Assembly: GCA_964348495.1 (NCBI GenBank)
Contig: CAYGCZ010000002.1
Location: 8,588 to 68,807 of the forward strand
Direction: 5' to 3'
Source of the DNA: an uncultured Candidatus Saccharibacteria bacterium
GTDB lineage: Bacteria > Patescibacteriota > Minisyncoccia > Phycocordibacterales > UBA2135
DNA length: 60,220 bases
The position numbers and the translations under genes are program-made. Positions 3,268 to 24,527 of the stretch are shown in pieces (within the stretch, counting starts at the first letter, position 1; each line of letters begins with the position of its first letter). The notes beneath the pieces were generated by a model. That model made no database searches. It saw only the letters and a list, made by a program, of their open reading frames with translations, and had not been told where the DNA came from.

Positions 3268-4020
3268 ATGGAACCATCACCACGTCTCGTCGCCTTCGAT
3301 CTGGATGGCACACTCGCCGAAAGTAAGACACCTATGACCAAAGACATGGGTGTTTTGCTCGCACGCCTTTTGAACAAGGTGCCTGTCGCCGTCATGTCCG
3401 GCGGTTCGTTTCCGCAGTTTGAACGTCAATTTTTTCCCGGATTGCCGGAGGGACAACCGCTCGGAGCATTGTATATGTTTCCTACGAGCGGCGCCCAATG
3501 CTATCGGCACGAGGGCGGGTCGTGGAAGTTGGTATATGATTGTTCGTTTGATGAGGAGGAACAACAGCGTATCATTGACGTACTCTGCGAGACGGCCCGC
3601 ATGACCGGACTTGATGCGCCGGCCCGCATGTGGGGGCACCTCATTGAAGACCGAGGCGCGCAAGTCACTTTTTCCGCTCTCGGACAGGAGGCGCCGCTTG
3701 CGGAAAAGCAAGAGTGGCACAAGGCGCACGATGCCGATCGTCAAAAAATGCGCGAGATGGCCGCGGCGATGCTCCCCAACTATTCGGTGCGCACCGGCGG
3801 ATTGACCTCCATCGACGTAACCCGTGCGGGCATCACCAAAGCATATGGCGTGCGCTGTCTTGAACGCCTGACGATGATCCCCGCCGCCGATATGCTCTAT
3901 GTGGGCGATGCCTTGTATGAAGGGGGCAACGACGAGGTCGTCAAAGAAGCCGGAGTTGCAACACGACAGGTAAGTGGTCCCGAGGAGACGGCGGGTGTGA
4001 TAGAGGGGTTGGTGAGGTAA
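3268..4020 (+). CDS. HAD-IIB hydrolase, eukaryotic-type phosphomannomutase-like
   Basis: An in-frame ATG at 3268 lies just after the upstream stop. Motifs: FDLDGTL (HAD motif I), VAVMSGGS, RTGGLTSIDV..GITKAY and VGD..EGGNDE. Their order matches PMM-type HAD proteins. Confidence 0.7.
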   Translation: MEPSPRLVAFDLDGTLAESKTPMTKDMGVLLARLLNKVPVAVMSGGSFPQFERQFFPGLPEGQPLGALYMFPTSGAQCYRHEGGSWKLVYDCSFDEEEQQRIIDVLCETARMTGLDAPARMWGHLIEDRGAQVTFSALGQEAPLAEKQEWHKAHDADRQKMREMAAAMLPNYSVRTGGLTSIDVTRAGITKAYGVRCLERLTMIPAADMLYVGDALYEGGNDEVVKEAGVATRQVSGPEETAGVIEGLVR

Positions 4021-4043
4021 CTTTTTTGCGCCCCGCTGGTGTG

Positions 4044-4063
4044 TGATATACTCGTACTACTAT
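4044..4063 (+). promoter_or_regulatory. Extended -10 boxes upstream of coiled-coil gene 4071
   Basis: TGATATACT (4044..4052) and TACTAT (4058..4063). The latter is 7 nt from the ATG. Confidence 0.45.
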
Positions 4064-4070
4064 TCCCACT

Positions 4071-4373
4071 ATGATCGACGAAACGACAAAACACATCTTG
4101 GAGATAATCACTAATATCCAAGAGAACATGGCGACGAAAGACGATATCAAGAACATGGCCACGAAGGATGATATTGCCTCTCTAGAGGCACGTATGGCAA
4201 CGAAGGATGACCTCTCTGAACTTCGTAGAGATGTGAGTGCGCGCATAGATGAAAACACAAAAGCCATCGAAGAACTGCGCGAAGAGGTGCACGGCATGCG
4301 TGGCTATGCAAAAGAAATCGATCACGTCATCTCGCGCGTATCCGTGTTGGAGCATCATGCAGGTGCGCGGTAG
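4071..4373 (+). CDS. Small coiled-coil protein (paralog 1) with three MATKDD(I/L) repeats
   Basis: 100-aa ORF with internal repeats starting at 4128, 4155 and 4194. The C-terminal 40 aa are identical to those of ORF 5444..5746. Confidence 0.65.
   Translation: MIDETTKHILEIITNIQENMATKDDIKNMATKDDIASLEARMATKDDLSELRRDVSARIDENTKAIEELREEVHGMRGYAKEIDHVISRVSVLEHHAGAR
4251..4373 (+). repeat. Direct repeat copy 1 (123 nt), 122/123 identical to 5624..5746
   Basis: Base-by-base comparison by hand shows one difference: G at 4346 versus A at 5719 (synonymous Val codon). Confidence 0.95.
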
Positions 4374-4378
4374 GAAAT

Positions 4379-5410
4379 ATGAAAAAAATTCTTTTAGAAC
4401 GGTATCCCAACAACGAAGACCCTGTTCCGATTTTGATGCCACGGAACGATGTTGAATGGGAGGCAAAGGCGGTTTTCAATCCCTCGGTCTTCAAAGATCA
4501 GGGTGTCTTTCATATGGTATATCGCACCTATCCAAAGATATTGGAGGAGGGTGCGCCACGGTATAAACGACCGGGGCGGTATCTTATTAATCAGGCCTCA
4601 TATATTGGCTATGCCCAAAGTACTGATGGCATACACTTTGAGCGTCGAGACTTTTCACTTATTGCGCCCGATCAAGAGTATGATCGCTATGGGTGTGAAG
4701 ATCCGCGTATCACCAAGATAGGCGATACGTTTTATATCACCTATACGGCGATTGATGCACCGTTAGATAAAAAGAAAGAATATCGCCCCAACATTCGCAT
4801 CGCTCTTGCGACTACTAAAGATTTTGTAACCATAGAGAAGCGTGGAATTATAGGTCCGTCGGTGCAATCAAAAGCCGCGGCATTTTTTCCTGATTTTGTT
4901 GCGGGCGGCAGGATTGGTCTCTTAATGACGATCAATGCTGATTCGGTGAATTCACGGATTGCCATACGATATTATGATTCCATCGACGACATACTCACCT
5001 CTCGAAGCGACAAAGATTGGGGACACTATTTCGAGAATCCATCTATCGTTTTTGATACGGCGTGGTGGTTACATCGTGGTCCCGAGTTGGGCGCTCCTCC
5101 TATAAAGACGGATAAGGGGTGGTTGATTATTTTTTCAGCGGAATCAATGTCTGATACGTGGACGATCGGCGCGGCATTACTTGATCTTGAAAATCCTCAG
5201 AAACTGATCGCGCGGGTACCCGGATACTTGTTGCAACCTGTTACCGCATATGAGCGCGATGGATTGGTGCCTCAGGTAACGTTTCCCGGAGGTGCTGTTA
5301 TTGTCGATGATGAATTGTATGTTTACTATGGTTGTGCCGATACGGTGATTGGTCTTGCACGATGCAGACTTACTGAGTTGCTGGCGTACCTAGAAGCATG
5401 TCGGCAATAG
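4379..5410 (+). CDS. GH130-family glycoside phosphorylase/hydrolase (visibly lower GC than the neighbouring GH130 genes)
   Basis: Motifs WEAKAVFNPSVF, HMVYR, CEDPR and a C-terminal YYGCAD. Codon usage is AT-richer than in genes 174..3257. Confidence 0.85.
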   Translation: MKKILLERYPNNEDPVPILMPRNDVEWEAKAVFNPSVFKDQGVFHMVYRTYPKILEEGAPRYKRPGRYLINQASYIGYAQSTDGIHFERRDFSLIAPDQEYDRYGCEDPRITKIGDTFYITYTAIDAPLDKKKEYRPNIRIALATTKDFVTIEKRGIIGPSVQSKAAAFFPDFVAGGRIGLLMTINADSVNSRIAIRYYDSIDDILTSRSDKDWGHYFENPSIVFDTAWWLHRGPELGAPPIKTDKGWLIIFSAESMSDTWTIGAALLDLENPQKLIARVPGYLLQPVTAYERDGLVPQVTFPGGAVIVDDELYVYYGCADTVIGLARCRLTELLAYLEACRQ

Positions 5411-5428
5411 AGAGGAAATCTTGGTATA

Positions 5429-5437
5429 TGATATACT
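5429..5437 (+). promoter_or_regulatory. Extended -10 (TGATATACT), 6 nt from ATG 5444
   Basis: Sequence match and spacing. Confidence 0.5.
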
Positions 5438-5443
5438 AAAATC

Positions 5444-5746
5444 ATGATCGACGAAACAGCAAAACACATCTTGGAGATTGTTACCGATATTCAAGAAAAG
5501 ATGGCGACAAAAGAGGATCTCGCCGAAGTTCGCACTGAACTCAAAAATAACATCGCCGAAGTTCGCGCTGAATTAAAAGGTGAAATTATGGAGGTGCGTA
5601 CTGAGTTGGGTGCGCAGATTCGCGAAAACACAAAAGCCATCGAAGAACTGCGCGAAGAGGTGCACGGCATGCGTGGCTATGCAAAAGAAATCGATCACGT
5701 CATCTCGCGCGTATCCGTATTGGAGCATCATGCAGGTGCGCGGTAG
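5444..5746 (+). CDS. Small coiled-coil protein (paralog 2) with three 11-aa AEVRxELKxxI repeats
   Basis: 100-aa ORF with 33-nt repeats starting at 5522, 5555 and 5588. N- and C-termini match ORF 4071..4373. Confidence 0.65.
   Translation: MIDETAKHILEIVTDIQEKMATKEDLAEVRTELKNNIAEVRAELKGEIMEVRTELGAQIRENTKAIEELREEVHGMRGYAKEIDHVISRVSVLEHHAGAR
5624..5746 (+). repeat. Direct repeat copy 2 (123 nt)
   Basis: See copy 1. Both copies end with the stop codon of a coiled-coil gene. Confidence 0.95.
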
Positions 5747-5768
5747 AGGAGGTGCGTATGATCTCCTT

Positions 5769-6581
5769 TTACAAAATAGCGATCGCAAAGACGATGGCTA
5801 TCGCGATGCGGTAGATACCAAACGAGGCAAACGAGTGTGAGCGAATATAGGTGAGGAGCCAGCGGATAGCGATGATGGCGGTTATAAACGAAGCGACAAA
5901 GCCGATGGCAAGCGAGAGGAATTGGTCGGTGTTGAATGCACCGGCGTTTTTAATAAGATCCAATCCTGTCGCCGCCGCCATCGTGGGGATGGCGAGGAGG
6001 AATGAGAATTCGGCGATGGTGCGTCGCTCAATGCCCATGAGCAAACCCCCGACGATCGTCGCCCCCGAGCGGGAGACGCCCGGTATCATGGCGACGGCTT
6101 GAAAGATACCCAGTGCGAGTGCTTGCCCGTAGGAGACACCCATGGCGATGTCGAGCGGTGCCGTTGGCTCTTCCGGCTTGCGGGGCGCGGCGGCCACGGC
6201 CGCCGCGCCCCTTCGGAGATGCCACTCCACGAAGATAAGGACAATACCACCCAGAGCAAGCGCCCACAGCATGAGTGAGAGGTTGCCGATCAGATACGTT
6301 TTGACCACCTTGTAGAGCGCGAGGCCAATGATGCCGGTAGGGATAAAGGCGACGATGATTTTTTTGATAAGGGGCAGGTCGGTAATGCGTCTCCAATAGA
6401 GCACAGCGACGGCAAGGATCGCACCGCTCTGGATCGCGATCTCAAAGGACTTTACATACTCCGTTTGCGCGATGCCCAAAAGATGTGAGGTGAGGATGAG
6501 GTGCGCCGTTGAGGAGATGGGGAGGAACTCGGTGATACCTTCCACGATGCCGAGGATGAGGGAGGAGAAGATGTCTATCAT
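5769..6581 (-). CDS. uppP: Undecaprenyl-diphosphate phosphatase
   Basis: The N-terminus GIVEGITEFLPISSTAHLIL is the classic UppP/BacA signature. The protein is polytopic and membrane-embedded. Confidence 0.93.
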   Translation of the reverse strand: MIDIFSSLILGIVEGITEFLPISSTAHLILTSHLLGIAQTEYVKSFEIAIQSGAILAVAVLYWRRITDLPLIKKIIVAFIPTGIIGLALYKVVKTYLIGNLSLMLWALALGGIVLIFVEWHLRRGAAAVAAAPRKPEEPTAPLDIAMGVSYGQALALGIFQAVAMIPGVSRSGATIVGGLLMGIERRTIAEFSFLLAIPTMAAATGLDLIKNAGAFNTDQFLSLAIGFVASFITAIIAIRWLLTYIRSHSFASFGIYRIAIAIVFAIAIL

Positions 6582-6655
6582 AGAACCCTCAGTATAGCAT
6601 GTCTGTGTGGGTAACTTTGTTTCAGAGTGTATGGTGTCCAGGTATACTTAAGTAC

Positions 6656-7204
6656 ATGAACGAAACACACGAAACGGCGGTCTTTGGGGGAGGGTGTTTC
6701 TGGTGTACCGAGGCGGTTTTCAAGATGCTGAAGGGCGTCATCTCCGTAGGCCCCGGCTATGCGGGCGGCACGACGGAAAACCCAACGTATGAAGAGGTAA
6801 GCAGTGGCACAACGGGCCACGCCGAAGTGATCAAAATCGTCTTTGATCCTGTGCAGGTTACCTATCGCACCTTGCTGACCGTCTTTTTCGGCAGTCACGA
6901 TCCGACGACCAAGAATAGACAGGGTAACGACGTCGGCACCCAATACCGTTCCGTTATCTTGTACACGACGCCCGAGCAGAAGGAGGTCGCCGAGAGTTTT
7001 ATTCGCGAGCTCAATGCGTCGGCGAGCGAGGGCGCCCCGATTGTGACGGAGGTCGCCCCGCTTACGAAATTCTACGATGCGGAGGAGTATCATAAGGATT
7101 ATTACGCGCGCAACAAGAATGCCGGATATTGTCAGGTCGTCATCAATCCTAAGTTGGAAAAAGTGCAGAAGGAGTTTGCGGGATTATTAAAAGACATTTC
7201 ATAA
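6656..7204 (+). CDS. msrA: Peptide-methionine (S)-S-oxide reductase
   Basis: GGGCFWCTEAVF active-site motif. The ATG at 6656 lies 7 nt after a TATACT box. Confidence 0.92.
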   Translation: MNETHETAVFGGGCFWCTEAVFKMLKGVISVGPGYAGGTTENPTYEEVSSGTTGHAEVIKIVFDPVQVTYRTLLTVFFGSHDPTTKNRQGNDVGTQYRSVILYTTPEQKEVAESFIRELNASASEGAPIVTEVAPLTKFYDAEEYHKDYYARNKNAGYCQVVINPKLEKVQKEFAGLLKDIS

Positions 7205-7214
7205 GTATCCGCGT

Positions 7215-7299
7215 GATACACCGACAGTGCCGCCACGAGAGGGCGCTCCGGGCCGCTCGGCCAAGTCCTACCCTCTCGCAACGGCACAGTCGGTATATC
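7215..7299 (+). other. Nested stem-loop element between msrA and msrB
   Basis: The outer arms GATACACCGACAGTGCCG (7215..7232) and CGGCACAGTCGGTATATC (7282..7299) have two mismatches. The inner 8-bp stem CGAGAGGG/CCCTCTCG (7236..7243, 7271..7278) is perfect. No U-tract. Confidence 0.6.
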
Positions 7300-7315
7300 A
7301 TCACTTTGTATCTTT

Positions 7316-7717
7316 ATGGCGAACACTAACAATAATCAACCGATGCCGCAGAACGAAGGGGAGTGGAAGGAGCGGCTCACTCCGGAGCAGTACGCCGTCT
7401 TGCGCGAGAAGGGCACCGAAGCGGCTTTTTCAGGCAAACTCGGAGCCCCCGACAAAGACGGCGTGTATCATTGCGCCGCGTGCGGCAATCCGCTCTTTGC
7501 GGCCGGTGCCAAGTTTGACTCCGGTACGGGGTGGCCCAGTTTCGACGAAGCCCTCCCCGGCGCCGTGCGCCTCGTGGCCGATACCTCGTACGGCATGGAG
7601 CGTACCGAGGCGGTGTGCGCGAAGTGCGGCTCGCACCTCGGACACCTCTTTGACGACGGGCCCACCGACACCGGCAAGCGGTATTGCATGAACGCCGTGT
7701 GCCTTACGAACGAATAG
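7316..7717 (+). CDS. msrB: Peptide-methionine (R)-S-oxide reductase
   Basis: Zinc motifs CAACGNPLF and CAKCGSHLGHLF, plus GWPSF. Confidence 0.92.
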   Translation: MANTNNNQPMPQNEGEWKERLTPEQYAVLREKGTEAAFSGKLGAPDKDGVYHCAACGNPLFAAGAKFDSGTGWPSFDEALPGAVRLVADTSYGMERTEAVCAKCGSHLGHLFDDGPTDTGKRYCMNAVCLTNE

Positions 7718-7753
7718 CCATACTTCATTATTCCTGCTTCCTCATTCATTTGT

Positions 7754-8179
7754 ATGGAAATCATCATCAATCACTACGCGGTCATCGTGGCCGCCATCTC
7801 GAGCATTGTTATGGGCTCACTCTGGTACGGTCCCCTCTTCGGTAAGCAGTGGATGGCGCTTATGGGCTTTACTCAAGAGCAGATGGAAGCAGCAAAAAAG
7901 AAGGGTATGACAAAGAGCTATCTTTTTGCTCTCGTCGGCTCCTTCCTCACAGCATATGTGCTCGCCTATGCAATCGCATTTACCAATACACTCTTTGGTA
8001 CGCAAGGCGGGGTGATTGGCATCACCGTTGGTTACTTCGCATGGCTCGGCTTCGTCGTCCCCGCATCTTTGAGCACCGTCTTGTGGGAGGGGCGGCCGTG
8101 GAAGCTCTTCTTCCTCAACATCGGTTATTACCTCGCGCTCTTTGTCGTGATGGGAGCAATCCTCGGCGCGTGGATGTAG
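7754..8179 (+). CDS. DUF1761-family membrane protein
   Basis: An N-terminal SLWYGPLFGKQWMALMG motif and four hydrophobic segments. Confidence 0.7.
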   Translation: MEIIINHYAVIVAAISSIVMGSLWYGPLFGKQWMALMGFTQEQMEAAKKKGMTKSYLFALVGSFLTAYVLAYAIAFTNTLFGTQGGVIGITVGYFAWLGFVVPASLSTVLWEGRPWKLFFLNIGYYLALFVVMGAILGAWM

Positions 8180-8182
8180 TAG

Positions 8183-8250
8183 AGAATGTAGAATTTGGAA
8201 TATAGAATATGGAGAATATCGGCCGCATCGCTTCGCGATGCGGCCGATAT
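8183..8250 (+). repeat. REP/MITE-like element copy A: AGAATGTAGAAT motif plus a perfect 16-bp hairpin
   Basis: It starts 4 nt after the stop codon of the DUF1761 gene. The hairpin ATATCGGCCGCATCGC-TTC-GCGATGCGGCCGATAT spans 8216..8250 and has no U-tract. Confidence 0.8.
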
Positions 8251-8366
8251 TTGCGGGACATGCTTCAGAGAAAGAACCTATCATACCTTTTCCGCGCAGT
8301 TCTGCAACACGTGATCATATTGCAGAAGCAAGAACGATATAAACGTGTGATATACTGCCAACATGG

Positions 8367-8404
8367 GGTTGGTCGCCATCGGCGGTCAACCTTTTGTGCT
8401 TTTT
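8367..8404 (+). terminator. Orphan intrinsic terminator-like hairpin in the 8180-8515 intergenic region
   Basis: GGTTGGTCGCC-ATC-GGCGGTCAACC (11 bp including two G-U pairs), followed by TTTTGTGCTTTTT. Confidence 0.5.
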
Positions 8405-8515
8405 CGGAGTGATGTAGAAACGTGATATACTGCCGAAAAAGATAACAATCAAATTTGCAGGCACAAGAAAAATTAACCAATGAGCTTATAGAGATTATCA
8501 AAAAGAAGATTTGAT

Positions 8516-9247
8516 ATGGATAAAAAAGATAATGAAAATGAAATAATCGGTTCAGTAAATGGCGTTTTGAAGTCCCGTCTATTTACAAATGTCTATGGTA
8601 CGTTTGCAATATCATGGGCTATTTTTCATTGGGAGTTTATCTATACGCTCATTTCGGTTAATGAGCAATTGATTTTTGATGCTACGGGATTATTAAAACA
8701 TACGTATCTTCTACATACTTTTTTTGATGTAACCCGTTGGTATTTTTGGTGGTCGTGGATGGCACCTTTCTTCACTACATGGTTTATTATATGGGAACTT
8801 CCAAACAGGGTTTTGTTCCCAGCATTTATAGAGGAAGATACTTTTCGCAGTAAAAAGATGAAAATTCGTCTTGAAAATGATCGTCTTATTTTAGAATCAG
8901 AAACAAAGTTTATTAAAGAAGAAGAGAAACAACTGATCGCTAAAGAAAAAAAGGTGGCTACTCAGAAAAAGGTAGAAGAGACTAGCCCTGAGGTTTTGTG
9001 GGAGAAAGAATATCAAGAATTTAAAAAAAGTCCGCAGTACTCAAGCCTTTTTCTGATTATAAAATCTATTTATGAAGAGAGGGGTGCTATTTCTCGGAAT
9101 GGTATCCCGATTGTGGGAAAGGATTTATTGGCGTATGCGCACTCACACGATCTTGTAGAGATTGAAGATGATAACCTTGCAAGAACAATCTCGCTCACCC
9201 TTAAGGGGAAGTATTTTGTCGCTCAGTATACGCAAGAAAATAAATAA
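8516..9247 (+). CDS. Hypothetical membrane/coiled-coil protein in an AT-rich islet
   Basis: 243-aa ORF with aromatic-rich hydrophobic N-terminal segments, a Lys/Glu-rich middle and a C-terminal globular part. A hairpin and T-tract follow at 9279..9306. I recognise no family. Confidence 0.55.
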   Translation: MDKKDNENEIIGSVNGVLKSRLFTNVYGTFAISWAIFHWEFIYTLISVNEQLIFDATGLLKHTYLLHTFFDVTRWYFWWSWMAPFFTTWFIIWELPNRVLFPAFIEEDTFRSKKMKIRLENDRLILESETKFIKEEEKQLIAKEKKVATQKKVEETSPEVLWEKEYQEFKKSPQYSSLFLIIKSIYEERGAISRNGIPIVGKDLLAYAHSHDLVEIEDDNLARTISLTLKGKYFVAQYTQENK

Positions 9248-9278
9248 AAAATAAGAGTCTCATTTGAGATTTGATATA

Positions 9279-9306
9279 ACCCAAGCACAATGCTTGGGTT
9301 TTTGTT
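9279..9306 (+). terminator. Intrinsic terminator after ORF 8516
   Basis: ACCCAAGCA-CAA-TGCTTGGGT followed by TTTTTGTT. Confidence 0.8.
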
Positions 9307-9317
9307 ATAGTACACCC

Positions 9318-9845
9318 ATGGAATATCTATTCACGTTGCGCGATGAGGACATTTTTCGAGAACCGGAGTTTCCGACCCCTGCATCATATGAGAAGCGGGT
9401 GACGGTAAAAGCGATAGTGCGCAATGAAGCTGGGCTGTATGGATTTGTAACAAACCCTGTCCATGATTGTATTTTGCTTGCGGGTGGCGGTGCGGAAAGC
9501 CCTGATCTTCAAAAGGAGGTACTGCGAGAATGTGATGAAGAGTTATTTTGCGAGGTTGAGGTTATAGGTACTATTGGCACCGCGCACGAATTTCGTAACA
9601 GGAACGGCGTGGAGTATGAGACGGCATGTTATGTTGCCAAGGCGGTGGGTGAGGCGCATGAAGACACCCGTACTGACGATGAAAAAAAGAATGGTCTTTA
9701 TCCCGTTTGGCTTTCTGGTGATGAGGCACTACAAAAGATGAAAATGCAGGAGGAAAAAGTTCGGGCGAGGGAGGTCGCTTTTTACAACACCGCTTTCAAT
9801 ATAATTCGCGACCTGCGTTTTTTTGAGATATTTTTGAGCCGGTGA
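9318..9845 (+). CDS. NUDIX-like hydrolase (degenerate NUDIX box)
   Basis: LAGGGAESPDLQKEVLRECDEELFCEV resembles GX5EX7REUXEEXGU, but the spacing is off. The ORF-track start at 9264 (TTG) lies inside the upstream terminator, so I use the ATG at 9318. Confidence 0.5.
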   Translation: MEYLFTLRDEDIFREPEFPTPASYEKRVTVKAIVRNEAGLYGFVTNPVHDCILLAGGGAESPDLQKEVLRECDEELFCEVEVIGTIGTAHEFRNRNGVEYETACYVAKAVGEAHEDTRTDDEKKNGLYPVWLSGDEALQKMKMQEEKVRAREVAFYNTAFNIIRDLRFFEIFLSR

Positions 9846-9851
9846 TACGGA

Positions 9852-9860
9852 TGCTATACT
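9852..9860 (+). promoter_or_regulatory. Extended -10 (TGCTATACT), 8 nt from ATG 9869
   Basis: Sequence match and spacing. Confidence 0.5.
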
Positions 9861-9868
9861 GAAGATAT

Positions 9869-10312
9869 ATGAAATTAAAAAACATTATTTTTTGCGGGTG
9901 CGGGGAGAGGTGGCAGGATCTCTCGCCGCTTATTCTGCGCTTCATTACAGGTCTCGCCTTTATCATGCATGGGTGGATGAAGTACCCAAACATTGAGGGC
10001 TTCACAGGTTTTCTTACCAGTATGAATGTGCCCATGGCCGCTTTTTTTGGGCCGTTCATCGTCTACTTGGAGATCGTGGGCGGCGGTTTGCTCATCGTCG
10101 GATTGCTGACGCACTGGGTCTCCAAACTGCTTGCGATCAACATGCTCGTCGCGGTGGCGTTGGTGCACTGGAAGAACGGCTTCTTCGTGCAGGATGGAGG
10201 GTATGAGCTCGCGCTTCTCCTCCTTGCCATGTCCCTTTCACTTATGATCACAGGGGCGGGGAGGTGGTCGCTTGATCATCTCTTACTGAAGAAGACACCC
10301 GAACATATGTAG
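9869..10312 (+). CDS. DoxX-family membrane protein
   Basis: LILRFITGLAFIMHGWMKY and four transmembrane segments are typical of DoxX. Confidence 0.8.
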   Translation: MKLKNIIFCGCGERWQDLSPLILRFITGLAFIMHGWMKYPNIEGFTGFLTSMNVPMAAFFGPFIVYLEIVGGGLLIVGLLTHWVSKLLAINMLVAVALVHWKNGFFVQDGGYELALLLLAMSLSLMITGAGRWSLDHLLLKKTPEHM

Positions 10313-11298: not shown

Positions 11299-12069
11299 AT
11301 GGCACGACACGGAAAACGGTCCCACCCGACATCACAAAGGTTCAGTCGAGGCGGGCAGGCATTTTCTAAAAAGAACCCAAAGCAGGGCAAGCAGTTTTGG
11401 GACAAGGAATATGCGGGCGCACAGAACCTCGCGCTCTCAACGGAACCGAGCGAGGATGTGGTGAAGTTCACGCGGTTTTTGGAGCGGCATGATCCGGCGG
11501 CGCTTTCGCCGGATGAGCGCGCCGCCGACCTCGGCTGTGGCAACGGGCGCAATCTTGTCCATCTTGCACGCACCTATGGCATAGGCGGGGCGGGCTTTGA
11601 TATCTCACAAGAGGCGATCGCACAGGCACGATCGCTTGGTGAGGGGCTCCACCTCTCATATGAAGTGCGTTCGCTCGCCGATCCTGTTTTGCTCACTGAT
11701 GAGTCGCATGTGATCGTCATCGACGCGATGGCGTCGCATGTGCTCCCCAAGGCGGGGCGCGATCGTTTGCGTGCGGAGGAGGCGCGTATCCTAAAACCGA
11801 ACGGTTGGCTTTTTCTCAAAACCTTTCTCCGCGAGGGCGACCTGCACGCCGAACGCATGTTGCGCGATCACCCGGCTTCCGAAGATGGTTCCTACATCCA
11901 CCCCAAGATCGGCATCATGGAGCACGTCTATACCGAAGAAGATCTTGCCGAGGAGCTCGCGCCGTATTTTGAAGTGGTAAAGACTATCAAATCCTACCGC
12001 CATCGCGACAAGGCGGGCCGCGCCTTCAAACGCCGCAGTATCGTGGTCTATGCGCGGAAGAATGGTTAG
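11299..12069 (+). CDS. Class I SAM-dependent methyltransferase
   Basis: The ADLGCGNGRNLVHLA glycine-rich SAM motif. The start is ambiguous between GTG 11281 and ATG 11299. Confidence 0.75.
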   Translation: MARHGKRSHPTSQRFSRGGQAFSKKNPKQGKQFWDKEYAGAQNLALSTEPSEDVVKFTRFLERHDPAALSPDERAADLGCGNGRNLVHLARTYGIGGAGFDISQEAIAQARSLGEGLHLSYEVRSLADPVLLTDESHVIVIDAMASHVLPKAGRDRLRAEEARILKPNGWLFLKTFLREGDLHAERMLRDHPASEDGSYIHPKIGIMEHVYTEEDLAEELAPYFEVVKTIKSYRHRDKAGRAFKRRSIVVYARKNG

Positions 12070-12087
12070 TACTACAATGCCGGGATT

Positions 12088-12465
12088 ATGGACAGTATCC
12101 ATCAATCCTCAAAGTCTGTCTCCTCGCTTACGAAGCAACAGAATAAGAAAGAGATTGAGCGTCATATTGCATGCAAATCACAACAGCGATGTGGTGTTTT
12201 GCGCAGGTTTGTTTCATTGGAAAAATTTATAGAGGCAAATGAGAGGAGAAAAGATGCCGGTTTGCGATTTAAGGTGTTTTTTGTTGCTCTGGATATTATA
12301 AAAGGGGCACGGTGCTATTCTGAAAAAATACTGGATGGATATCGGTGTTTTGAGATTGTGGGTTGTGCTTGCAGAGGAGAAACAGTAACAGTACATTTGC
12401 GCGAAGAAAGGGACGAGCGTGGTAATAAAACACTCTACCTTATATCTTGTTTCCACAAACCGTGA
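12088..12465 (+). CDS. Hypothetical Cys-containing basic protein (orphan, AT-richer islet)
   Basis: 125-aa ORF followed by a hairpin and T-tract at 12482..12513. No recognisable motif. Confidence 0.45.
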   Translation: MDSIHQSSKSVSSLTKQQNKKEIERHIACKSQQRCGVLRRFVSLEKFIEANERRKDAGLRFKVFFVALDIIKGARCYSEKILDGYRCFEIVGCACRGETVTVHLREERDERGNKTLYLISCFHKP

Positions 12466-12481
12466 TCATTGAAAAGTAAAA

Positions 12482-12513
12482 CCCCCTCCCATAGCATGCT
12501 GGGAGCGGGTTTT
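12482..12513 (+). terminator. Intrinsic terminator after ORF 12088
   Basis: CCCCCTCCC..AGCATGCT..GGGAGCGGG followed by TTTT. Confidence 0.5.
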
Positions 12514-12670
12514 GAGAATCCGTTTTGATGATGCGGAATTTACCAGACATTTTGCAAAAGCAAAACCGAACCGTATCACCAGACTGGGATGTGTCATTAT
12601 TGTATACAATAATGTGCATATATGCAATATGTATCTTGGGTTATGCGGGGAGGGAATTCACCCGCAAAAA

Positions 12671-12700
12671 TTGACTTATATAATAATGTGATGTTATATC
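12671..12700 (+). promoter_or_regulatory. Promoter for ORF 12732
   Basis: TTGACT, an 18-nt spacer containing TG, then TATATC. Confidence 0.45.
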
Positions 12701-12731
12701 TACCGTAGAGTATCTTACTTAAAAGGAGATA

Positions 12732-13082
12732 GTGATGATTTCAGCACATGTCTTGCCTCTCTGTGTGGACAGAGAGAAAACCTGTTTTAATGTAGTACAT
12801 GGAGGCGGTACCTATGCCATTATCGCCTTTAACCAGAAAATCTCTGGTTTTGAGGTCCGGAATGCGTTCTATCAGATGAGCGTGACGCATGGAGGATTGG
12901 ATGAGCTCAATCATGCGCGAAATCTTCTGCAAACGCAGAAGCGTGTCGGCATGATCGTGGCACTCCACGAGCAAGGAAAGCATCTCATCTGGGATCCGGC
13001 AGTGTATAGTCTGTCATGCTGTCATCGGGATGAGACGACATACTATCCGAAAGGAACTCTCTTTATAGGGGTCAACACATGA
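12732..13082 (+). CDS. Hypothetical protein (orphan, AT-richer islet)
   Basis: 116-aa ORF with an AAGGAGA Shine-Dalgarno sequence, an upstream TTGACT-N18-TATATC promoter and a downstream terminator at 13091..13121. Confidence 0.55.
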   Translation: MMISAHVLPLCVDREKTCFNVVHGGGTYAIIAFNQKISGFEVRNAFYQMSVTHGGLDELNHARNLLQTQKRVGMIVALHEQGKHLIWDPAVYSLSCCHRDETTYYPKGTLFIGVNT

Positions 13083-13090
13083 CCTTGAAT

Positions 13091-13121
13091 CGCCGCGCGC
13101 ACCTGCGCCGGCGGTTTTTTT
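13091..13121 (+). terminator. Intrinsic terminator after ORF 12732
   Basis: A GC-rich hairpin CGCCG(C)GCGC-ACCT-GCGCCGGCG followed by TTTTTTT. Confidence 0.75.
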
Positions 13122-13147
13122 GTATCATGGTAGTCTGACAGACGCTA

Positions 13148-13184
13148 CATGGTACTTCATACTTCCTACGTCATACTTTATACT
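13148..13184 (+). promoter_or_regulatory. Conserved upstream box (homologous to 42981..43014) ending in TATACT, 7 nt from ATG 13192
   Basis: 29 of 40 ungapped identities with the smc upstream region. Contains CATACT, ATACT and TATACT. Confidence 0.5.
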
Positions 13185-13191
13185 TAAGGGC

Positions 13192-14853
13192 ATGACCCCC
13201 AATCAACTCCATGAAATGCTCGCCACCTGCTTGCGCGTGCGCGCCGATGCGACGATAGAACCCTCGGCGCGCCGCCGTGTGAGCCGCGATACCAGTATCT
13301 TTGAGCGCATACCGAGTGCTGTCGTTGCCCCGCGCGATACGGCCGATGTTGCCGCCGTGGTGAGATGTGTCCACGGCAAGCGGGCGGCGGGGGAGAATAT
13401 CTCCATCACGGCGCGTTCCGCGGGGACGGACATGACGGGCGGCCCGCTTACGTCTTCGATCGTCATGTCGTTCACTGAACACGTAAACCATATCGGTCCT
13501 GTAGAACATGATGAGATAACGGTGGAGCCCGGCGCGTACTATCGCGATTTGGAGCGGGCGACTCTTGCTTGGGGTCTCCTTCTGCCCAGCTATCCTGCAT
13601 CCAAGGATATCTGTGCCGTCGGCGGCATGATCGCCAACAATGCAGGCGGCGAGCGCACCCTCAAGTACGGCAAGACCGAGCGCTATATACGCTCATTGGA
13701 TGTGGTCTTGTCGGATGGTACGAAGGCGGTGCTCCGACCCCTTTCGCGGGAGGAATTGGAGGAGAAAAAGAAACGCGCGGGTTTGGAGGGCGAGATATAT
13801 CGCCGCATGGAGCGATTGCTTACCGATCATGCATCAGCTATTGAGGAGGCCCGCCCGAAGGTACCTAAGAACTCTGCGGGGTATGCACTTTGGAATGTGA
13901 TCGACCGCAAGCGCGGCATGTTTGATCTTACCCAACTCATCGTCGGTTCGCAGGGGACGCTCGCGCTCGTGACGGGTGCACGCCTTGCGCTTGTTCGCCC
14001 CAAAGAGCATCGCGCCATGCTCATCGTATTCTTGCAGGACCTTAACGCGGTTCCCGAGATCGTTCGTCGCGTGCTCGGGTATGGTCCGGAATCCTTTGAA
14101 TCCTACGATGACCACACCCTCAAGCTCGCCGTGCGTTTCTTTCCTCACATGCTTCGCCAGATGGGTCTTATCCGTGCGGCGTCGCTCGGTCTTTCATTCA
14201 TTCCCGAGGTATGGATGGCGGCAACGGGCGGCGTGCCGCGGCTTATCCTCATGGCCGAGTTTGCCGAAGATACGAAAGAGGAGGCGGTGGCGAAGTGCCG
14301 CGAGGCGCGGCAGGCCCTTGCCGATCTCCCTGTCTCTACGCGTATCGCCTCCTCTTCGGTGTCGGCGCGAAAGTATTGGATCGTGAGGCGCGAGAGCTTT
14401 GCCCTCCTGCGCAAGAATTTGAGCGGCCTCTACGCCGCACCCTTCATCGACGACTTCGTCGTGAGCCCTGATTTTTATCCGGAGTTTCTACCGCGCCTCA
14501 CCGCGCTTTTGGAGCACCATCATCTCATCTACACTATCGCGGGGCATGTCGGCAACGGCAACTTTCATATCATCCCGCTTATGGATTTGAGTGATCCTGC
14601 CGCGCGTGCGATTATCACCGAGCTGGCGCCCAAGGTCTATGCGCTCGTCGTAGAATATGGCGGCTCCATAACGGGCGAGCACAACGATGGCATCATGCGC
14701 ACGCCCTATCTGCCGATGATGTTCGGCGAAAAGATGGTCGCACTCTTCAAAGAAGTGAAAGACATCTTTGATCCTTTGGGTGTCTTCAACCCCGGAAAAA
14801 AGATTGGCGGCACGGTGGAGGATATAGAACGGGACATGATCAAAGAGAGGTAA
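13192..14853 (+). CDS. FAD-linked oxidase/dehydrogenase (PCMH-type, GlcD/D-lactate dehydrogenase-like)
   Basis: ITARSAGTDMTGGPL and VGGMIANNAGGERTLKYG FAD-binding motifs, plus a C-terminal GGSITGEHNDG and FNPGK. The ATG at 13192 lies 7 nt after a TATACT box. Confidence 0.8.
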   Translation: MTPNQLHEMLATCLRVRADATIEPSARRRVSRDTSIFERIPSAVVAPRDTADVAAVVRCVHGKRAAGENISITARSAGTDMTGGPLTSSIVMSFTEHVNHIGPVEHDEITVEPGAYYRDLERATLAWGLLLPSYPASKDICAVGGMIANNAGGERTLKYGKTERYIRSLDVVLSDGTKAVLRPLSREELEEKKKRAGLEGEIYRRMERLLTDHASAIEEARPKVPKNSAGYALWNVIDRKRGMFDLTQLIVGSQGTLALVTGARLALVRPKEHRAMLIVFLQDLNAVPEIVRRVLGYGPESFESYDDHTLKLAVRFFPHMLRQMGLIRAASLGLSFIPEVWMAATGGVPRLILMAEFAEDTKEEAVAKCREARQALADLPVSTRIASSSVSARKYWIVRRESFALLRKNLSGLYAAPFIDDFVVSPDFYPEFLPRLTALLEHHHLIYTIAGHVGNGNFHIIPLMDLSDPAARAIITELAPKVYALVVEYGGSITGEHNDGIMRTPYLPMMFGEKMVALFKEVKDIFDPLGVFNPGKKIGGTVEDIERDMIKER

Positions 14854-14898
14854 AACAGGATTTCCTACGTACGCTCCGCTGTAGTATACTGCCCATAT

Positions 14899-15285
14899 AT
14901 GAAATCGCGTTCAAACCGTATCGTGGCCGGCATCATCGTACTCGCTCTTGCGGGTGTTATCTATATGGTCGCCACCAAAGAACGCGCCCCGAGCAAACTG
15001 GACGGCTTTGCGGCCTGCATCCAAGAGAGTGGCGCGACCTTCTACGGCGCCTTCTGGTGCCCGCACTGCCAGAACCAAAAGGCCATGTTCGGCAGGTCGG
15101 CAAAACTGCTCCCGTATGCGGAGTGTTCCACGCCAGATGGCCGCGGCCAACTTACCGGCTGTAAGGATTTGGCCATCACCACCTACCCGACATGGGTCTT
15201 TGGCGATGGCTCAACGACCACGGGCGAGATCCCGTTGAAGATACTTGCCGAAAAAACCTCCTGCGCACTGCCGCTTGAGGAGTGA
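14899..15285 (+). CDS. Membrane-anchored thioredoxin-fold protein (WCPHC), VKOR-associated Trx-like type
   Basis: An N-terminal transmembrane helix, then FYGAFWCPHCQNQKAMFG and YPTW. Confidence 0.75.
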   Translation: MKSRSNRIVAGIIVLALAGVIYMVATKERAPSKLDGFAACIQESGATFYGAFWCPHCQNQKAMFGRSAKLLPYAECSTPDGRGQLTGCKDLAITTYPTWVFGDGSTTTGEIPLKILAEKTSCALPLEE

Positions 15286-15288
15286 TCT

Positions 15289-15846
15289 ATGAACCCGACG
15301 GTTGTTCAACTCAACTTCCTCCTCGCTCTCGGCACAGTCGCGATGCAGGTCGCGATTCTTTGCCTGCTCGGTTCACTGGTCTACGAGCGCATTGCGAAGC
15401 GCCGTACGGCGGCACTCAATCGCGTGGCGGCGTGGGGTATGTCGCTGGTTGCGGCACTTGCCGTCTTCGGCACCGCGTTCACGCTTCTCTACTCGGAGGT
15501 CTTTGGCTTCGTGCCGTGCTCGCTCTGCTGGTTCCAGCGCATCTTCCTCTACCCGCAGGCGATTGTGGCACCCCTCGCGCTCTTCATGAAAGATACGCGC
15601 TATACCCCCGCATATCTCATAGCCCTCTCGTCCTTCGGATCGCTCTTCGCCCTCTACCAACACTACCTGCAAATGAGCGGTAGTCCGTTGCCATGTCCTG
15701 CGGGCGGGGGAGATTGCGGACAACGCATCGTCTTTGAGTTCGGGTATATAACCTTCCCGCTCATGGCATGGTCGCTCTTTGTGCTTATCATCGTCATTAT
15801 GAGTATTGTTCTTATGCGGCGCGCCGCCGACCGCGCAGCGATCTGA
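15289..15846 (+). CDS. dsbB: Disulfide bond formation protein DsbB (BdbC type)
   Basis: VPCSLCWFQRIFLYP, four transmembrane segments and a second Cys pair (CPAGGGDC) in the distal loop. Confidence 0.8.
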   Translation: MNPTVVQLNFLLALGTVAMQVAILCLLGSLVYERIAKRRTAALNRVAAWGMSLVAALAVFGTAFTLLYSEVFGFVPCSLCWFQRIFLYPQAIVAPLALFMKDTRYTPAYLIALSSFGSLFALYQHYLQMSGSPLPCPAGGGDCGQRIVFEFGYITFPLMAWSLFVLIIVIMSIVLMRRAADRAAI

Positions 15847-15858
15847 TCCCCGCCTCAT

Positions 15859-16566
15859 ATGTTATCTGCAACCTACAAACATCATGAAGAAGCCGCGGCG
15901 ATTGCCTTAAACGACGACGCCGCGCGCGCGGAGGAGAAGGCCCGCCACGACGGCTATCAGTATTCCCGCGTCTCGCGCTTCTTCGGCCGCATACTTATCG
16001 GCTTGGGCAACATCGTGTATGGCGAAGGCCCCTCGTATATCAAGTTTCGTGCGCTTGAAATCATCGCGCGCGTGCCGTATCACTCGTGGGAGTCGGCCGC
16101 TTACACACTGCTCACCCTTTTTTACTCTCAAGAGAAGAAGGCGATCCGTCTCTCGCGTTTTTCGGCGTTTGCACGGCACGCCCAGGACAACGAGACGATG
16201 CACGTCATCGTCATATCGCACATCGCCAAGAAGGAGTGCGCCCATTCGTTCATGCGTACGACGCTTATCCCCGTGTTCTTTGCTTTTATGTATTTTTGGG
16301 CCGCCTATGTGCTCTACCTCGTACATCGTCGTTGGGCGCTTGAGTTGAATGCACTGTTTGAAGATCACGCCTTTGAACAATACGACCGCTTTATTACCGA
16401 GTGGCAGGCGGCTCTCAAAGAGAAGCCGGTAGAGAGCGACTTTCTCACCTTCTATGGCAGGGTTGCGCCGACGCAGTTGGATTTTTTCCGTCTGGTGCGC
16501 AACGACGAGCTGATGCACCGTAACCGCTCGCTTGATCAGATCGCGCTCTCCGGCATTCGGCTCTGA
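15859..16566 (+). CDS. Alternative oxidase-like diiron carboxylate protein (AOX/PTOX family)
   Basis: Four motifs in AOX order: ALEIIARVP (Glu), DNETMHV (ExxH), FEDHAFEQY (Glu) and NDELMHRN (ExxH). Confidence 0.65.
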   Translation: MLSATYKHHEEAAAIALNDDAARAEEKARHDGYQYSRVSRFFGRILIGLGNIVYGEGPSYIKFRALEIIARVPYHSWESAAYTLLTLFYSQEKKAIRLSRFSAFARHAQDNETMHVIVISHIAKKECAHSFMRTTLIPVFFAFMYFWAAYVLYLVHRRWALELNALFEDHAFEQYDRFITEWQAALKEKPVESDFLTFYGRVAPTQLDFFRLVRNDELMHRNRSLDQIALSGIRL

Positions 16567-16620: not shown

Positions 16621-16629
16621 TGGTATAAT
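16621..16629 (+). promoter_or_regulatory. Extended -10 (TGGTATAAT) upstream of the histidine kinase
   Basis: Sequence match, 21 nt from the ATG. Confidence 0.45.
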
Positions 16630-23141: not shown

Positions 23142-23186
23142 GGGTGAACATACAGGCGTTTCTCGAAATGAAACGTCACACTATCT

Positions 23187-24494
23187 GTGTTTGGGGATGT
23201 TTCTAAAAAATTGACAGCGTATCTGATGGTAGCATGCATAGCATGTGCGCCCTTTACCGTGGTTGGGCAGACGGGTGATCAGGGTGTTTTGGAAAAGCGA
23301 GCTCAACTTGAGCAGGAATTGGCGGGTTTGGAAAAAGAAATCGAGGTGCAGCAGCAGGTCTTGCAGGAGAAACAACGTCAATCCGTCTCGTTGGAGCGTG
23401 ATATCACGATCTTTGATACCAAGATCCAGTCGGCACAGTTGAGTATCAAGGCGCGCAACCTCGCGATCAGTAAACTTAAACGCGAGATTGATCTCAAATC
23501 CCAAACCATCGCCGAGCTCAACAATAAGCTCGGCAGGCAAAAGGAGTCCCTCGGACAGCTCTTGCGCAAGACGCGCGAGCTGGATTCCTATACGCTCGTC
23601 GAGGTGATGCTGGGCACCAAAAATCTTTCCAGATTCTTTGAGGATGTGGAGAGTTTCACCGCCATCAAGGCCTCCTTGGAGGATTCTTTCATACAGATCG
23701 ATAAGACCAAACAGGCGGCGGCCAAGGAGCAGGAATACCTCCAGGACAACCAGCAGGAAGAGGAGGAGCTCCGCCGTTTGCAGGAACTCCAGAAGATTCG
23801 CCTTGAAGCCGACAAGACCGAGAAACGTCAACTTTTGAATGCAACCAAAGGTGAAGAAAAGAAGTATCAAGAGATCGTTGAGGCAAAGAAACGAAGCGCC
23901 GCGTCCATTCGCAGTCAGCTCTTTTCGTTGCGCGGCTCGGAGGCGATCCCTTTTGAAAAGGCTCTTGAGTACGCCAACCTCGCCTCCGCGAAGACCGGCG
24001 TGCGCCCCGCCTTCATTCTTGGCCTGATCAAAAACGAGTCGCGCTTGGGCGAGTATATCGGCACCGGCAGTTGGCGTGTGGATATGCACCCCACGCGCGA
24101 TCAGCCGATCTTCCTCGAGATCACGCGTCGTCTCGGGCTCAACCCTGACGATATGCCCGTCTCCAAGAAGCCCTGGTACGGGTGGGGAGGGGCGATGGGT
24201 CCGGCGCAGTTCATCCCCTCCACGTGGATCCTCTACGAGGATCGTATTGCAACCCTCTCCGGCCACACGCCGCCCAATCCATGGATACCGCTTGATGCCT
24301 TTATGGCCGCGGCCGTCCTCCTGAAGGACAATGGCGCGGCGAAGGGAGGGGAGGCCGCCGAGCGCCTCGCCGCCTTGCGGTACTTTGCCGGATGGAAGAA
24401 CGCCACCAAGAAAGCCTATGCTTTTTATGGCGAGGATGTGCTCGCCTACGCCGCCGAATTTCAAGAACTCATTGACATCTTGAAATCCAATTAG
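23187..24494 (+). CDS. Secreted coiled-coil protein with C-terminal lytic transglycosylase (SLT_2/MltB-like) domain
   Basis: A GTG start gives a signal-peptide-like N-terminus. About 230 aa of coiled coil follow, then NESRLGEY and GAMGPAQFIPSTW. Confidence 0.75.
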   Translation: MFGDVSKKLTAYLMVACIACAPFTVVGQTGDQGVLEKRAQLEQELAGLEKEIEVQQQVLQEKQRQSVSLERDITIFDTKIQSAQLSIKARNLAISKLKREIDLKSQTIAELNNKLGRQKESLGQLLRKTRELDSYTLVEVMLGTKNLSRFFEDVESFTAIKASLEDSFIQIDKTKQAAAKEQEYLQDNQQEEEELRRLQELQKIRLEADKTEKRQLLNATKGEEKKYQEIVEAKKRSAASIRSQLFSLRGSEAIPFEKALEYANLASAKTGVRPAFILGLIKNESRLGEYIGTGSWRVDMHPTRDQPIFLEITRRLGLNPDDMPVSKKPWYGWGGAMGPAQFIPSTWILYEDRIATLSGHTPPNPWIPLDAFMAAAVLLKDNGAAKGGEAAERLAALRYFAGWKNATKKAYAFYGEDVLAYAAEFQELIDILKSN

Positions 24495-24527
24495 GTTTGT
24501 AGTATACATAGATATTCACAAGAAGGT

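Follow-up and report, generated by a model that had tools for sequence, protein, structure and literature searches.

Four genes on the forward strand of a 60,220-nucleotide stretch of contig CAYGCZ010000002.1, the whole of which is called the window here, are read as three redox modules that are conserved separately in Paceibacteria and that in this genome have come together as one co-directional cluster, where they would feed a loop running from quinone to oxygen. Judged from sequence comparisons, this reading has a probability of roughly 0.5. The cluster occupies positions 13192-16566, with gaps of 45, 3 and 12 nt between the genes, and the open reading frame (ORF) positions agree with those of an earlier, first-pass annotation of the same DNA. 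Its products are a flavin adenine dinucleotide (FAD)-linked flavoenzyme of 553 amino acids (aa) carrying FAD_binding_4 and FAD-oxidase_C domains (13192..14853), a membrane-anchored thioredoxin-fold protein of 128 aa with a WCPHC motif (14899..15285; Trx below), a BdbC-type DsbB of 185 aa (15289..15846), and a diiron carboxylate protein of 235 aa (15859..16566) from the family of plastoquinol terminal oxidase and alternative oxidase (PTOX/AOX), a putative quinol:O2 oxidoreductase. The flavoenzyme and the oxidase were identified from their ORFs and Pfam, DsbB from its ORF with Pfam and NCBIfam, and Trx from its ORF and an alignment to the structure 3kp9. A longer, TTG-initiated ORF for the flavoenzyme, starting at 13120, is unlikely because a promoter box sits at 13179.

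Electrons would most likely flow from thiols, perhaps also from a D-2-hydroxyacid, to quinone and from there to O2. In the proposed chain, Trx would oxidise the cysteines of exported proteins and would be re-oxidised by DsbB through two Cys pairs, with reduction of a membrane quinone. The PTOX-like enzyme would re-oxidise the resulting quinol, converting O2 to water without proton pumping, while D-lactate or a different D-2-hydroxyacid may supply electrons to this quinone pool by way of the flavoenzyme. The expected outcome would be O2 scavenging combined with redox balancing. In Escherichia coli, DsbB passes electrons to quinones, which are then re-oxidised by terminal oxidases, and both AOX and PTOX oxidise quinol with O2. 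For the present cluster, the order and spacing of the genes, the domains, the conserved catalytic residues, the promoter boxes and the conservation pattern of each module are observed; we infer that the genes are co-transcribed, that a quinone exists and which one it is (possibly host-derived), in which direction electrons flow and what the flavoenzyme uses as acceptor. The first-pass annotation had described a self-contained operon leading from thiols or substrate through quinone to O2; the four protein identities stood and the idea is reasonable for this organism, whereas the gene order is unconserved and two promoters are present. It also knew of no report that places DsbB and AOX in one operon, and a literature search found no paper linking the two genetically.

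Identities of the four proteins

The 235-aa protein is assigned as a divergent PTOX-like member of the AOX family, nearer to PTOX than to mitochondrial AOX. Pfam PF01786 (AOX) matches it at 1.8e-10, with 41.3 bits against a gathering threshold of 22.7, over profile positions 49-209 of 216, while NCBIfam gives zero matches. The ligands E67, E112-x-x-H115, E168 and E217-x-x-H220, together with Y175, are kept in 120/120 homologs from the candidate phyla radiation (CPR), and the same six ligands and the Tyr are invariant in five distant PTOX-like proteins and two cyanophage PTOX. Y175 lies seven residues after E168, the position of the conserved catalytic Tyr, and is presumably the counterpart of Y220 in trypanosome alternative oxidase (TAO). 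In the alignment with the two phage PTOX, an I-A-R-x-x-Y motif is likewise invariant, and distant PTOX-type sequences carry ETIARVPYF, NELHH, EEHAxxTY and RDDExxH. One strongly hydrophobic helix was recognised in the oxidase, at residues ~137-155. The diiron pattern E/ExxH/E/ExxH and the ARVP motif, earlier described as AOX-like, are present, and no other ferritin-like family with a better match was found.

Structural comparison points in the same direction. An AlphaFold (AF2) model built from 16 family members reached a pLDDT of 83 and a pTM of 0.83, and in a Foldseek search of the PDB the top 14 matches were all TAO, with probabilities of 0.97-1.0 and TM scores of 0.51-0.58. In a library of viral structures, the best matches were cyanophage PTOX (E 1e-5 and 2e-4, TM 0.60-0.69). 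Additionally, a tblastn search of 50,697 phage genomes returned 12 matches, all annotated as plastoquinol terminal oxidase, that is, cyanophage PTOX. The oxidase is ~15-18% identical to TAO and 23-27% identical to phage PTOX. COQ7, rubrerythrin and RNR-R2 were considered for the 235-aa protein and rejected, Pfam at E<=1 yielding AOX only and NCBIfam none; other ferritin-like folds were also rejected, the Foldseek PDB matches that follow TAO all having probabilities of <=0.2.

The oxidases of this type form a compact group of their own, with 17 representatives at E<=1e-30, and the gene is present in at least 281 of 185,579 GTDB species genomes. Homologs of the cluster proteins come almost exclusively from metagenome-assembled genomes of Paceibacteria/Parcubacteria (such as Kaiser-, Yonath- and Nomurabacteria), which places the source of the window among CPR bacteria, and cluster-name look-ups of intermediate relatives returned merely the automatic label 'ubiquinol oxidase'. 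A CPR-type oxidase was also seen on a contig labelled 'Bacillota bacterium' (L020, JBLNCF010000017.1), and many Paceibacteria-like loci, in records beginning with CAY or CAZ, are labelled 'uncultured Candidatus Saccharibacteria'; these odd labels look like mis-binning or generic naming and not like the true distribution. One CPR match has been mentioned in passing and judged a probable transfer from Proteobacteria (PMC9540462). A literature search combining AOX, PTOX, quinol oxidase or DsbB with CPR, Parcubacteria or Patescibacteria found no study of the CPR PTOX-like family.

The product of 13192..14853 is a predicted cytoplasmic flavoenzyme of the D-2-hydroxyacid dehydrogenase type with a VAO/PCMH fold, belonging to the group of GlcD, D-lactate dehydrogenase and D-2-hydroxyglutarate dehydrogenase. 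Pfam recognises FAD_binding_4 (1.3e-27) and FAD-oxidase_C (1.4e-44), and the relatives in the PDB are glycolate oxidase (1.9e-31), LctD (1e-27), and LDHD and D2HGDH (~2e-21), so that its earlier description as a PCMH-type, GlcD-like FAD-linked oxidase or dehydrogenase holds. Homologs that are 58-61% identical conserve the motifs GHxGxGNxH and GEH, which we take to be the metal site. The best NCBIfam model is YdiJ, matched over its N-terminal half (positions 32-539 of 1018), and the protein fails the equivalog level for named enzymes, scoring 259 bits against a cutoff of 1350 for YdiJ and 187 against 568 for GlcD. A hydropathy scan predicted no transmembrane (TM) or hydrophobic segment.

Residues 14-127 of Trx align with residues 168-280 of the Synechococcus VKOR structure 3kp9 at an E-value of 2.5e-22, a match that bears out the earlier remark that WCPHC proteins of this kind are usually associated with VKOR. 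The aligned part of 3kp9 consists of its last TM helix (TM5) and the fused Trx-like domain, including YGAxWCPHCQxQK, and Pfam Thioredoxin reaches an E-value of only 0.021. A single N-terminal TM helix is predicted at about residues 8-26. The protein is a stand-alone one, and the adjoining membrane enzyme is DsbB instead of VKOR; the 128-aa protein is presumed, from its sequence and position, to be the DsbA-like partner of this DsbB.

DsbB itself matches Pfam PF02600 (6.3e-10, 40.1 bits, cutoff 22.1) and the BdbC-type NCBIfam model PRK03113 (2.2e-21, 76 bits, under the model cutoff of 124). C77-S-L-C80, R84 and the pair C136/C143 are shared by 119-120 of 120 homologs, and R84, four residues past the CxxC motif, aligns with E. 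coli R48 in the C41/C44/R48 region, with a weak E-value. The family, the model and the conserved cysteines uphold the first-pass assignment as a BdbC-type DsbB with CSLC and a second Cys pair. At the N-terminus, a further hydrophobic segment spans residues 10-28, and the hydropathy threshold resolves the core helices only partly. Such a segment is common to Paceibacteria DsbBs (~175-185 aa; P0122-P0240) and is absent from E. coli DsbB as well as from the BdbC-type model of ~139 positions, which would imply either a fifth TM helix or a changed topology. The search found 845 DsbB homologs, again from Paceibacteria. In three unrelated DsbB contexts, a Trx ortholog (124-129 aa, 55-58% identical) lies 3-23 nt upstream every time, and neither an oxidase nor a FAD gene was found within 5 kb of DsbB in any of the three. 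Trx and DsbB are best described as a predicted self-contained cassette with its own promoter box.

Promoter boxes and gene order

The cluster had first been assigned one conserved promoter box; it contains two TATACT boxes, at 13179-13184 and 14885-14890. The promoter-like site of the FAD gene, found by a promoter scan at 13156..13184 on the forward strand, consists of TTCATA, a 17-nt spacer and TATACT, and the latter ends 7 nt ahead of the FAD ATG in a leaderless-type layout. The second promoter-like element lies on the same strand in the 45-nt gap between the FAD gene and Trx, at 14863..14890, and consists of TCCTACGT followed by TATACT, 8 nt ahead of the Trx ATG. The two boxes therefore point to two transcription units, and a layout with the FAD gene alone followed by Trx-DsbB-oxidase is probable. 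Neither the 3-nt gap between Trx and dsbB nor the 12-nt gap between dsbB and the oxidase holds a promoter box, and the oxidase is therefore probably read from the promoter of Trx-DsbB. No terminator is visible inside the unit, as had been noted before: four weak terminator-like matches were found, against 5.6 expected by chance. On the upstream side, a G+C-rich hairpin with a T run occupies ~13085-13120, after the ORF 12732..13082 and before the FAD promoter; on the downstream side, TATAAT at 16624-16629 serves a histidine kinase gene.

TATACT appears to behave as the -10 box of this genome in a leaderless-type layout. Within the window, 9 of its 30 sites lie 5-9 nt before the ATG of an ORF of >=60 aa, compared with 4.5% for composition-matched hexamers; examples include those at 5432, 6643, 9855, 13179, 14885, 26335 and 54751 on the forward strand and 6596 on the reverse strand. 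This suggests that many genes in this Paceibacteria genome may have leaderless or near-leaderless mRNAs. In relatives, (G)GTATACT-N6-8-ATG precedes Trx in most of 13 other Paceibacteria loci (7 by eye), and the variant TGnTAnnnT-N6-8-ATG precedes the oxidase in the spacers between FAD and AOX genes. The octamer TCCTACGT has exactly two copies in the 60 kb, at 13164-13171 and 14863-14870, each just upstream of a TATACT box, one for the FAD gene and one for Trx, and the combination CCTACGT..TATACT is present twice in the window, where 0.02 occurrences would be expected. It may serve as a shared operator specific to this genome. As a conserved operator it was rejected, being absent before Trx in 13/13 loci and before FAD in 76/80; it is not conserved in other genomes and is therefore at most a genome-specific element.

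Gene order was compared from both sides of the cluster. On the oxidase side, the 80 best GTDB loci were used, with flanks of up to 8 kb, plus the contigs of the four closest homologs (56-62% identical); on the FAD side, 80 metagenome loci were used in which the FAD gene is 58-65% identical. Conservation of the four-gene order in some relative, on which the operon idea of the first-pass annotation leaned, was seen in 0 of ~170 related loci (0/80 GTDB oxidase loci, 0/80 metagenome FAD loci and 0/7 further contexts). The oxidase gene is mostly solitary in relatives and stands in varied contexts; the neighbours of its four closest homologs are GrpE, HD/NUDIX, META/GIY-YIG and similar genes. Two neighbours are the most frequent: a protein of ~188 aa, which looks by eye like a PduO-type cob(I)alamin adenosyltransferase, is encoded convergently at +1 in 9 loci and is present in 14/80, and a 153-aa membrane protein is encoded at -1 in 8 loci and is present in 13/80. 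A functional link of these two to the oxidase is not obvious.

A smaller unit does recur. The FAD gene is followed directly and in the same direction by AOX in 10 loci, comprising 6 of the 80 oxidase loci (L028, L032, L034, L048, L054 and L068; FAD orthologs 58-65% identical) and 4 of the 63 FAD loci with >=800 nt of downstream flank (L162, L170, L174 and L175). Two of these, L170 and L174, have the order GH130a-GH130b-PMM-FAD-AOX, which is collinear with GH130a (18), GH130b (1332), PMM (3268), FAD (13192) and AOX (15859) in the window. Two stretches of the window are additional to this backbone: ~9 kb ahead of the FAD gene, with BacA, MsrA, MsrB, DUF1761, two low-GC ORFs, DoxX, SpoU and a methyltransferase, and the 0.96 kb of Trx-DsbB that separate the FAD gene from the oxidase. 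Because L170 and L174 are collinear without the cassette, Trx-DsbB would have been inserted between an ancestral FAD gene and AOX. The comparison suggests insertion into a FAD-oxidase pair as the simplest and most economical history, and also that the insertion left the oxidase without a promoter box of its own, 12 nt behind dsbB.

These loci give some weight to a different account, in which the FAD dehydrogenase and the PTOX-like oxidase are the real pair, a two-enzyme 'D-2-hydroxyacid oxidase' that conserves no energy, comparable to the glycerol-3-phosphate oxidase of trypanosomes or to the plastid route from desaturase through plastoquinone to PTOX, and Trx-DsbB is a passenger linked to it at most by a shared quinone pool. 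The adjacency of FAD and AOX in 10 independent loci, some of them collinear with the window, fits this account, as do the promoter that the Trx-DsbB cassette brings with it and the finding that DsbB stands beside the oxidase nowhere else. The adjacency is nevertheless a minority state (6/80; 4/63) that occurs mostly in a single branch of the FAD tree, and a separate promoter-like box precedes the oxidase in those loci, so that an operon is not required there. In the window, by contrast, the box is lost and the gene lies 12 nt behind dsbB, which makes its expression depend on the cassette. Taken together, the passenger account is a tentative one, less probable than the quinone-to-oxygen loop with all three modules.

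DsbB also recurs in the surroundings of the FAD gene. Of the 48 FAD loci with >=2.5 kb of downstream sequence, 15 have DsbB 13-4232 nt past the FAD gene, in every case on the other strand, and Trx is beside DsbB in 13 of these 15. HisS, an exonuclease and a SET-domain gene are conserved in this FAD-DsbB block, and in the tree the FAD genes that have DsbB nearby group together. DsbA-like and CcdA/redoxin genes recur near the FAD gene in related loci, and in 10 loci (L106, L116, L121, L126, L129, L131, L135, L146, L147 and L155) the FAD gene is directly followed on the same strand by a gene for a 345-aa DoxX-like polytopic membrane protein (DoxX E 4.3e-4, below the cutoff), which could be a membrane or quinone partner of the flavoenzyme. 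The window contains no homologs of the 345-aa DoxX-like, DsbA-like or SET-domain proteins, and none of the 80 metagenome FAD loci holds both DsbB and the oxidase.

Pure juxtaposition would explain the arrangement without any common function, the four genes being transcribed and used independently in a rearranged, variable region where close spacing reflects a compact genome. The uniqueness of the four-gene order among ~170 loci, the leaderless-type TATACT boxes that many genes here possess individually, and the low-GC islands and ~9-kb insertion relative to L170/L174, which mark a rearranged area, speak for it. Families that act on quinone (DsbB, PTOX-like, DoxX), however, recur in many loci around the FAD gene, which itself belongs to a family that often acts on quinone, and the gaps of 3 and 12 nt lack both box and terminator, making independent transcription of dsbB and the oxidase unlikely. 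Juxtaposition alone is thus regarded as rather unlikely.

Quinone supply, surroundings and significance

Several results weigh against the proposed quinone-to-oxygen loop. The Foldseek E-values to TAO are only 0.05-0.5, and the profile of 16 CPR family sequences found no TAO chain at E<=10, the family being very divergent; with a eukaryote-type PTOX relative (P0325) as query, TAO was likewise not found. Because the profile misses TAO, Pfam and the fold are what connect the protein to AOX, and sequence is what connects it to PTOX. Neither DsbB nor Trx was found near the oxidase in 84 oxidase contexts (6-8 kb of flank; tblastn at E<1 on 80 loci), and the oxidase was found in none of 18 DsbB contexts (3 DsbB contexts and 15 FAD-plus-DsbB loci). 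In the relatives that have DsbB-Trx near the FAD gene, the two are convergent to it and therefore not co-transcribed with it, and since housekeeping genes share the block, the FAD-DsbB neighbourhood may be inherited synteny of one clade. The flavoenzyme is without the Fe-S half through which YdiJ is connected to quinone. The 60-kb window and ~8.5 kb upstream of it yielded neither a gene for quinone biosynthesis nor any other respiratory component, and quinone synthesis is generally reported to be missing from CPR bacteria. The nearest candidate for a quinone gene on the contig encodes a generic methyltransferase with a UbiE-family match.

DsbB requires quinone in characterised systems, and its wide distribution in the lineage makes the presence of some quinone probable. 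Should there be a quinone pool, it would couple the enzymes wherever their genes lie, and the operon is therefore a genomic hint and not proof.

That no quinone genes were found nearby also bears on the substrate of the oxidase. The 235-aa protein could be a PTOX-fold diiron enzyme acting on something else, as an oxygenase or hydroxylase or as a scavenger of O2 or peroxide, and the cluster a loose island of stress and thiol-redox genes. Such an enzyme would suit organisms that make no quinone, and it would agree with the quinone genes not found nearby, with the high divergence from characterised AOX and PTOX and the missing profile match to TAO, with the solitary gene in very varied contexts, and with the stress and repair neighbours MsrA, MsrB and DoxX and, farther upstream, AhpC/redoxin. 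Against this, the six ligands, the Tyr at +7 and the PTOX motifs ARVPY and NExxH are strictly kept, the family, structure and phage matches are to AOX/PTOX only, and the lineage-wide DsbB makes some quinone probable. A substrate other than quinol is accordingly considered improbable, even more so than chance juxtaposition.

Returning to the quinone-to-oxygen loop, a broader and more speculative extension may be put forward, although it is doubtful at present: Paceibacteria might run a minimal aerobic electron sink on scavenged, probably host quinone, loaded by DsbB and the D-2-hydroxyacid dehydrogenase and unloaded onto O2 by the PTOX-like oxidase, with the window representing the one genome in which Trx-DsbB-oxidase lies in a single transcript. 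If this were true, CPR bacteria would need O2 and a borrowed cofactor for oxidative protein folding, and non-photosynthetic bacteria would harbour a large reservoir of the PTOX branch of the AOX family.

The surroundings of the cluster are those of a reduced genome. The window has a G+C content of ~55%, and Rfam and tRNA scans found no rRNA or tRNA in it. According to family matches, the rest of its proteins form a typical housekeeping set, including ribosomal proteins, RpoA, ThrRS, DnaE, RNase HII, RNase III, SMC and RseP, as well as MreBC, penicillin-binding proteins, GreA, MraW and a Mur ligase. Upstream of the cluster, 5769-10312 carries redox and oxidative-stress genes, namely BacA (reverse strand), MsrA, MsrB, DUF1761, two unannotated ORFs and DoxX/DoxD. 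The DoxX/DoxD-family membrane protein (9869..10312, forward strand; DoxX 4.1e-18, DoxD 2.3e-7) has its own TATACT box, and its gene, 2.9 kb upstream, may be a member of the same redox neighbourhood. Beyond the window, the same contig (L095) encodes an AhpC/redoxin-Thioredoxin_10 protein, a LUD-domain (LutC-like) protein and a methyltransferase matching the UbiE family.

Low-GC islands lie at 8001-10000 (GC 0.42), 4001-6000 (GC 0.47) and 12070-13190 (GC 0.51 in the bin 12001-14000), with the low-GC ORFs 8516..9247 (a weak YagK/YfjJ_C match only), 9264..9845 and 12732..13082 being without a family match; these islands may be recently acquired DNA at the border of the cluster. Elsewhere in the window, a single ORF at 41180-42079 joins a NusB domain (7.5e-33) to a C-terminal NUDIX domain (5e-11), a fusion that is unusual to our knowledge. 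A RhuM-family ('Virulence_RhuM') gene at 35899-36924 adjoins dnaE at 37016-40195, and the RhuM-dnaE stretch forms a separate 6.1-kb contig (L094) in another assembly of the same sample. At 23181-24509, two ORFs on opposite strands overlap almost fully, 435 aa on the forward and 442 aa on the reverse strand; the 435-aa ORF is the sole called gene of the pair, with a faint SLT_2 match and without a clear family.

The four protein families and the principle that connects DsbB, quinone and oxidase are already known. New or nearly undescribed are the PTOX-like family of non-photosynthetic CPR bacteria, which is large and tightly conserved, the systematic pairing of a stand-alone VKOR-type Trx with DsbB, and the apparent joining in this genome of Trx-DsbB with the oxidase in one probable transcript. 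The usual picture of CPR/Patescibacteria is one of anaerobic fermenters that lack electron transport. An oxidase of this kind, together with the ubiquitous DsbB of the lineage, raises the questions of which quinone is used and where it comes from, whether O2 is consumed and by which route DsbB is re-oxidised. The recruitment of a VKOR-type Trx to DsbB mixes two known bacterial systems for disulfide generation. Trx-DsbB-oxidase (14899-16566, ~1.7 kb) is a compact and testable construct, and should the oxidase prove inactive on quinols, a new activity within the AOX fold would be indicated. The cluster is a good experimental handle and not a conserved system.

Comparison with known systems

The closest functional parallel is the E. 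coli pathway of oxidative folding, which runs from DsbA through DsbB and ubiquinone to cytochrome bd/bo oxidase (Bader et al. 1999; Inaba and Ito). Both systems have a thioredoxin-fold oxidant recycled by a DsbB with two Cys pairs and an Arg after the CxxC motif, and in both, here as proposed, electrons would pass through quinone and a terminal oxidase to O2. They differ in the partner, which is a membrane-anchored, VKOR-type Trx-like protein here and the soluble DsbA in E. coli, and in DsbB, which is BdbC-like here with the extra N-terminal hydrophobic segment. The presumed oxidase, furthermore, is a non-pumping diiron PTOX-like enzyme and not a haem-copper or bd oxidase, and its gene begins 12 nt past dsbB, whereas the E. 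coli genes are unlinked.

For Trx and DsbB, two further systems are informative. The 128-aa protein resembles Synechococcus VKOR (3KP9, 4NV2) in the linking TM helix and the Trx-like domain, which are unfused here and encoded by a separate gene directly upstream of DsbB. Bacillus subtilis BdbC-BdbD likewise combines a short BdbC-type DsbB with an adjoining membrane-anchored thioredoxin-fold oxidase, although the partner here is not of the DsbA-like BdbD type and the match to PRK03113 stays at 76 against 124 bits.

The flavoenzyme aligns over its whole length with the FAD-binding and cap domains of E. coli YdiJ and of GlcD, LDHD and D2HGDH, but it is without the C-terminal Fe-S/CCG half that couples YdiJ to quinone. 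With regard to the oxidase, plastid PTOX/IMMUTANS serves phytoene desaturase through plastoquinone. Protoporphyrinogen oxidase (PPX) is also served by PTOX via plastoquinone (PMC6499784). The window protein shares with PTOX the Pfam family, the six ligands, the Tyr and the motifs ARVPY, NExxH, E-x-HA-x-x-Y and DExxH, as well as the concept of a FAD enzyme passing electrons through quinone to a diiron oxidase and O2. Unlike PTOX, with which its identity is in the range given above for the phage enzymes (23-27%), it comes from a non-photosynthetic CPR bacterium with a reduced genome and without a known quinone pathway. In bloodstream trypanosomes, a FAD-dependent glycerol-3-phosphate dehydrogenase, ubiquinone and TAO make up a two-enzyme oxidase. 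TAO (3VV9, 3VVA) is the nearest solved fold, and the arrangement proposed here would similarly be a minimal chain of dehydrogenase, quinone and diiron oxidase that conserves no energy. The window oxidase differs from TAO in its low identity (15-18%) and in having no counterpart of the long N-terminal arm, and the dehydrogenase, unlike that of trypanosomes, is of the D-2-hydroxyacid (VAO/PCMH) class.

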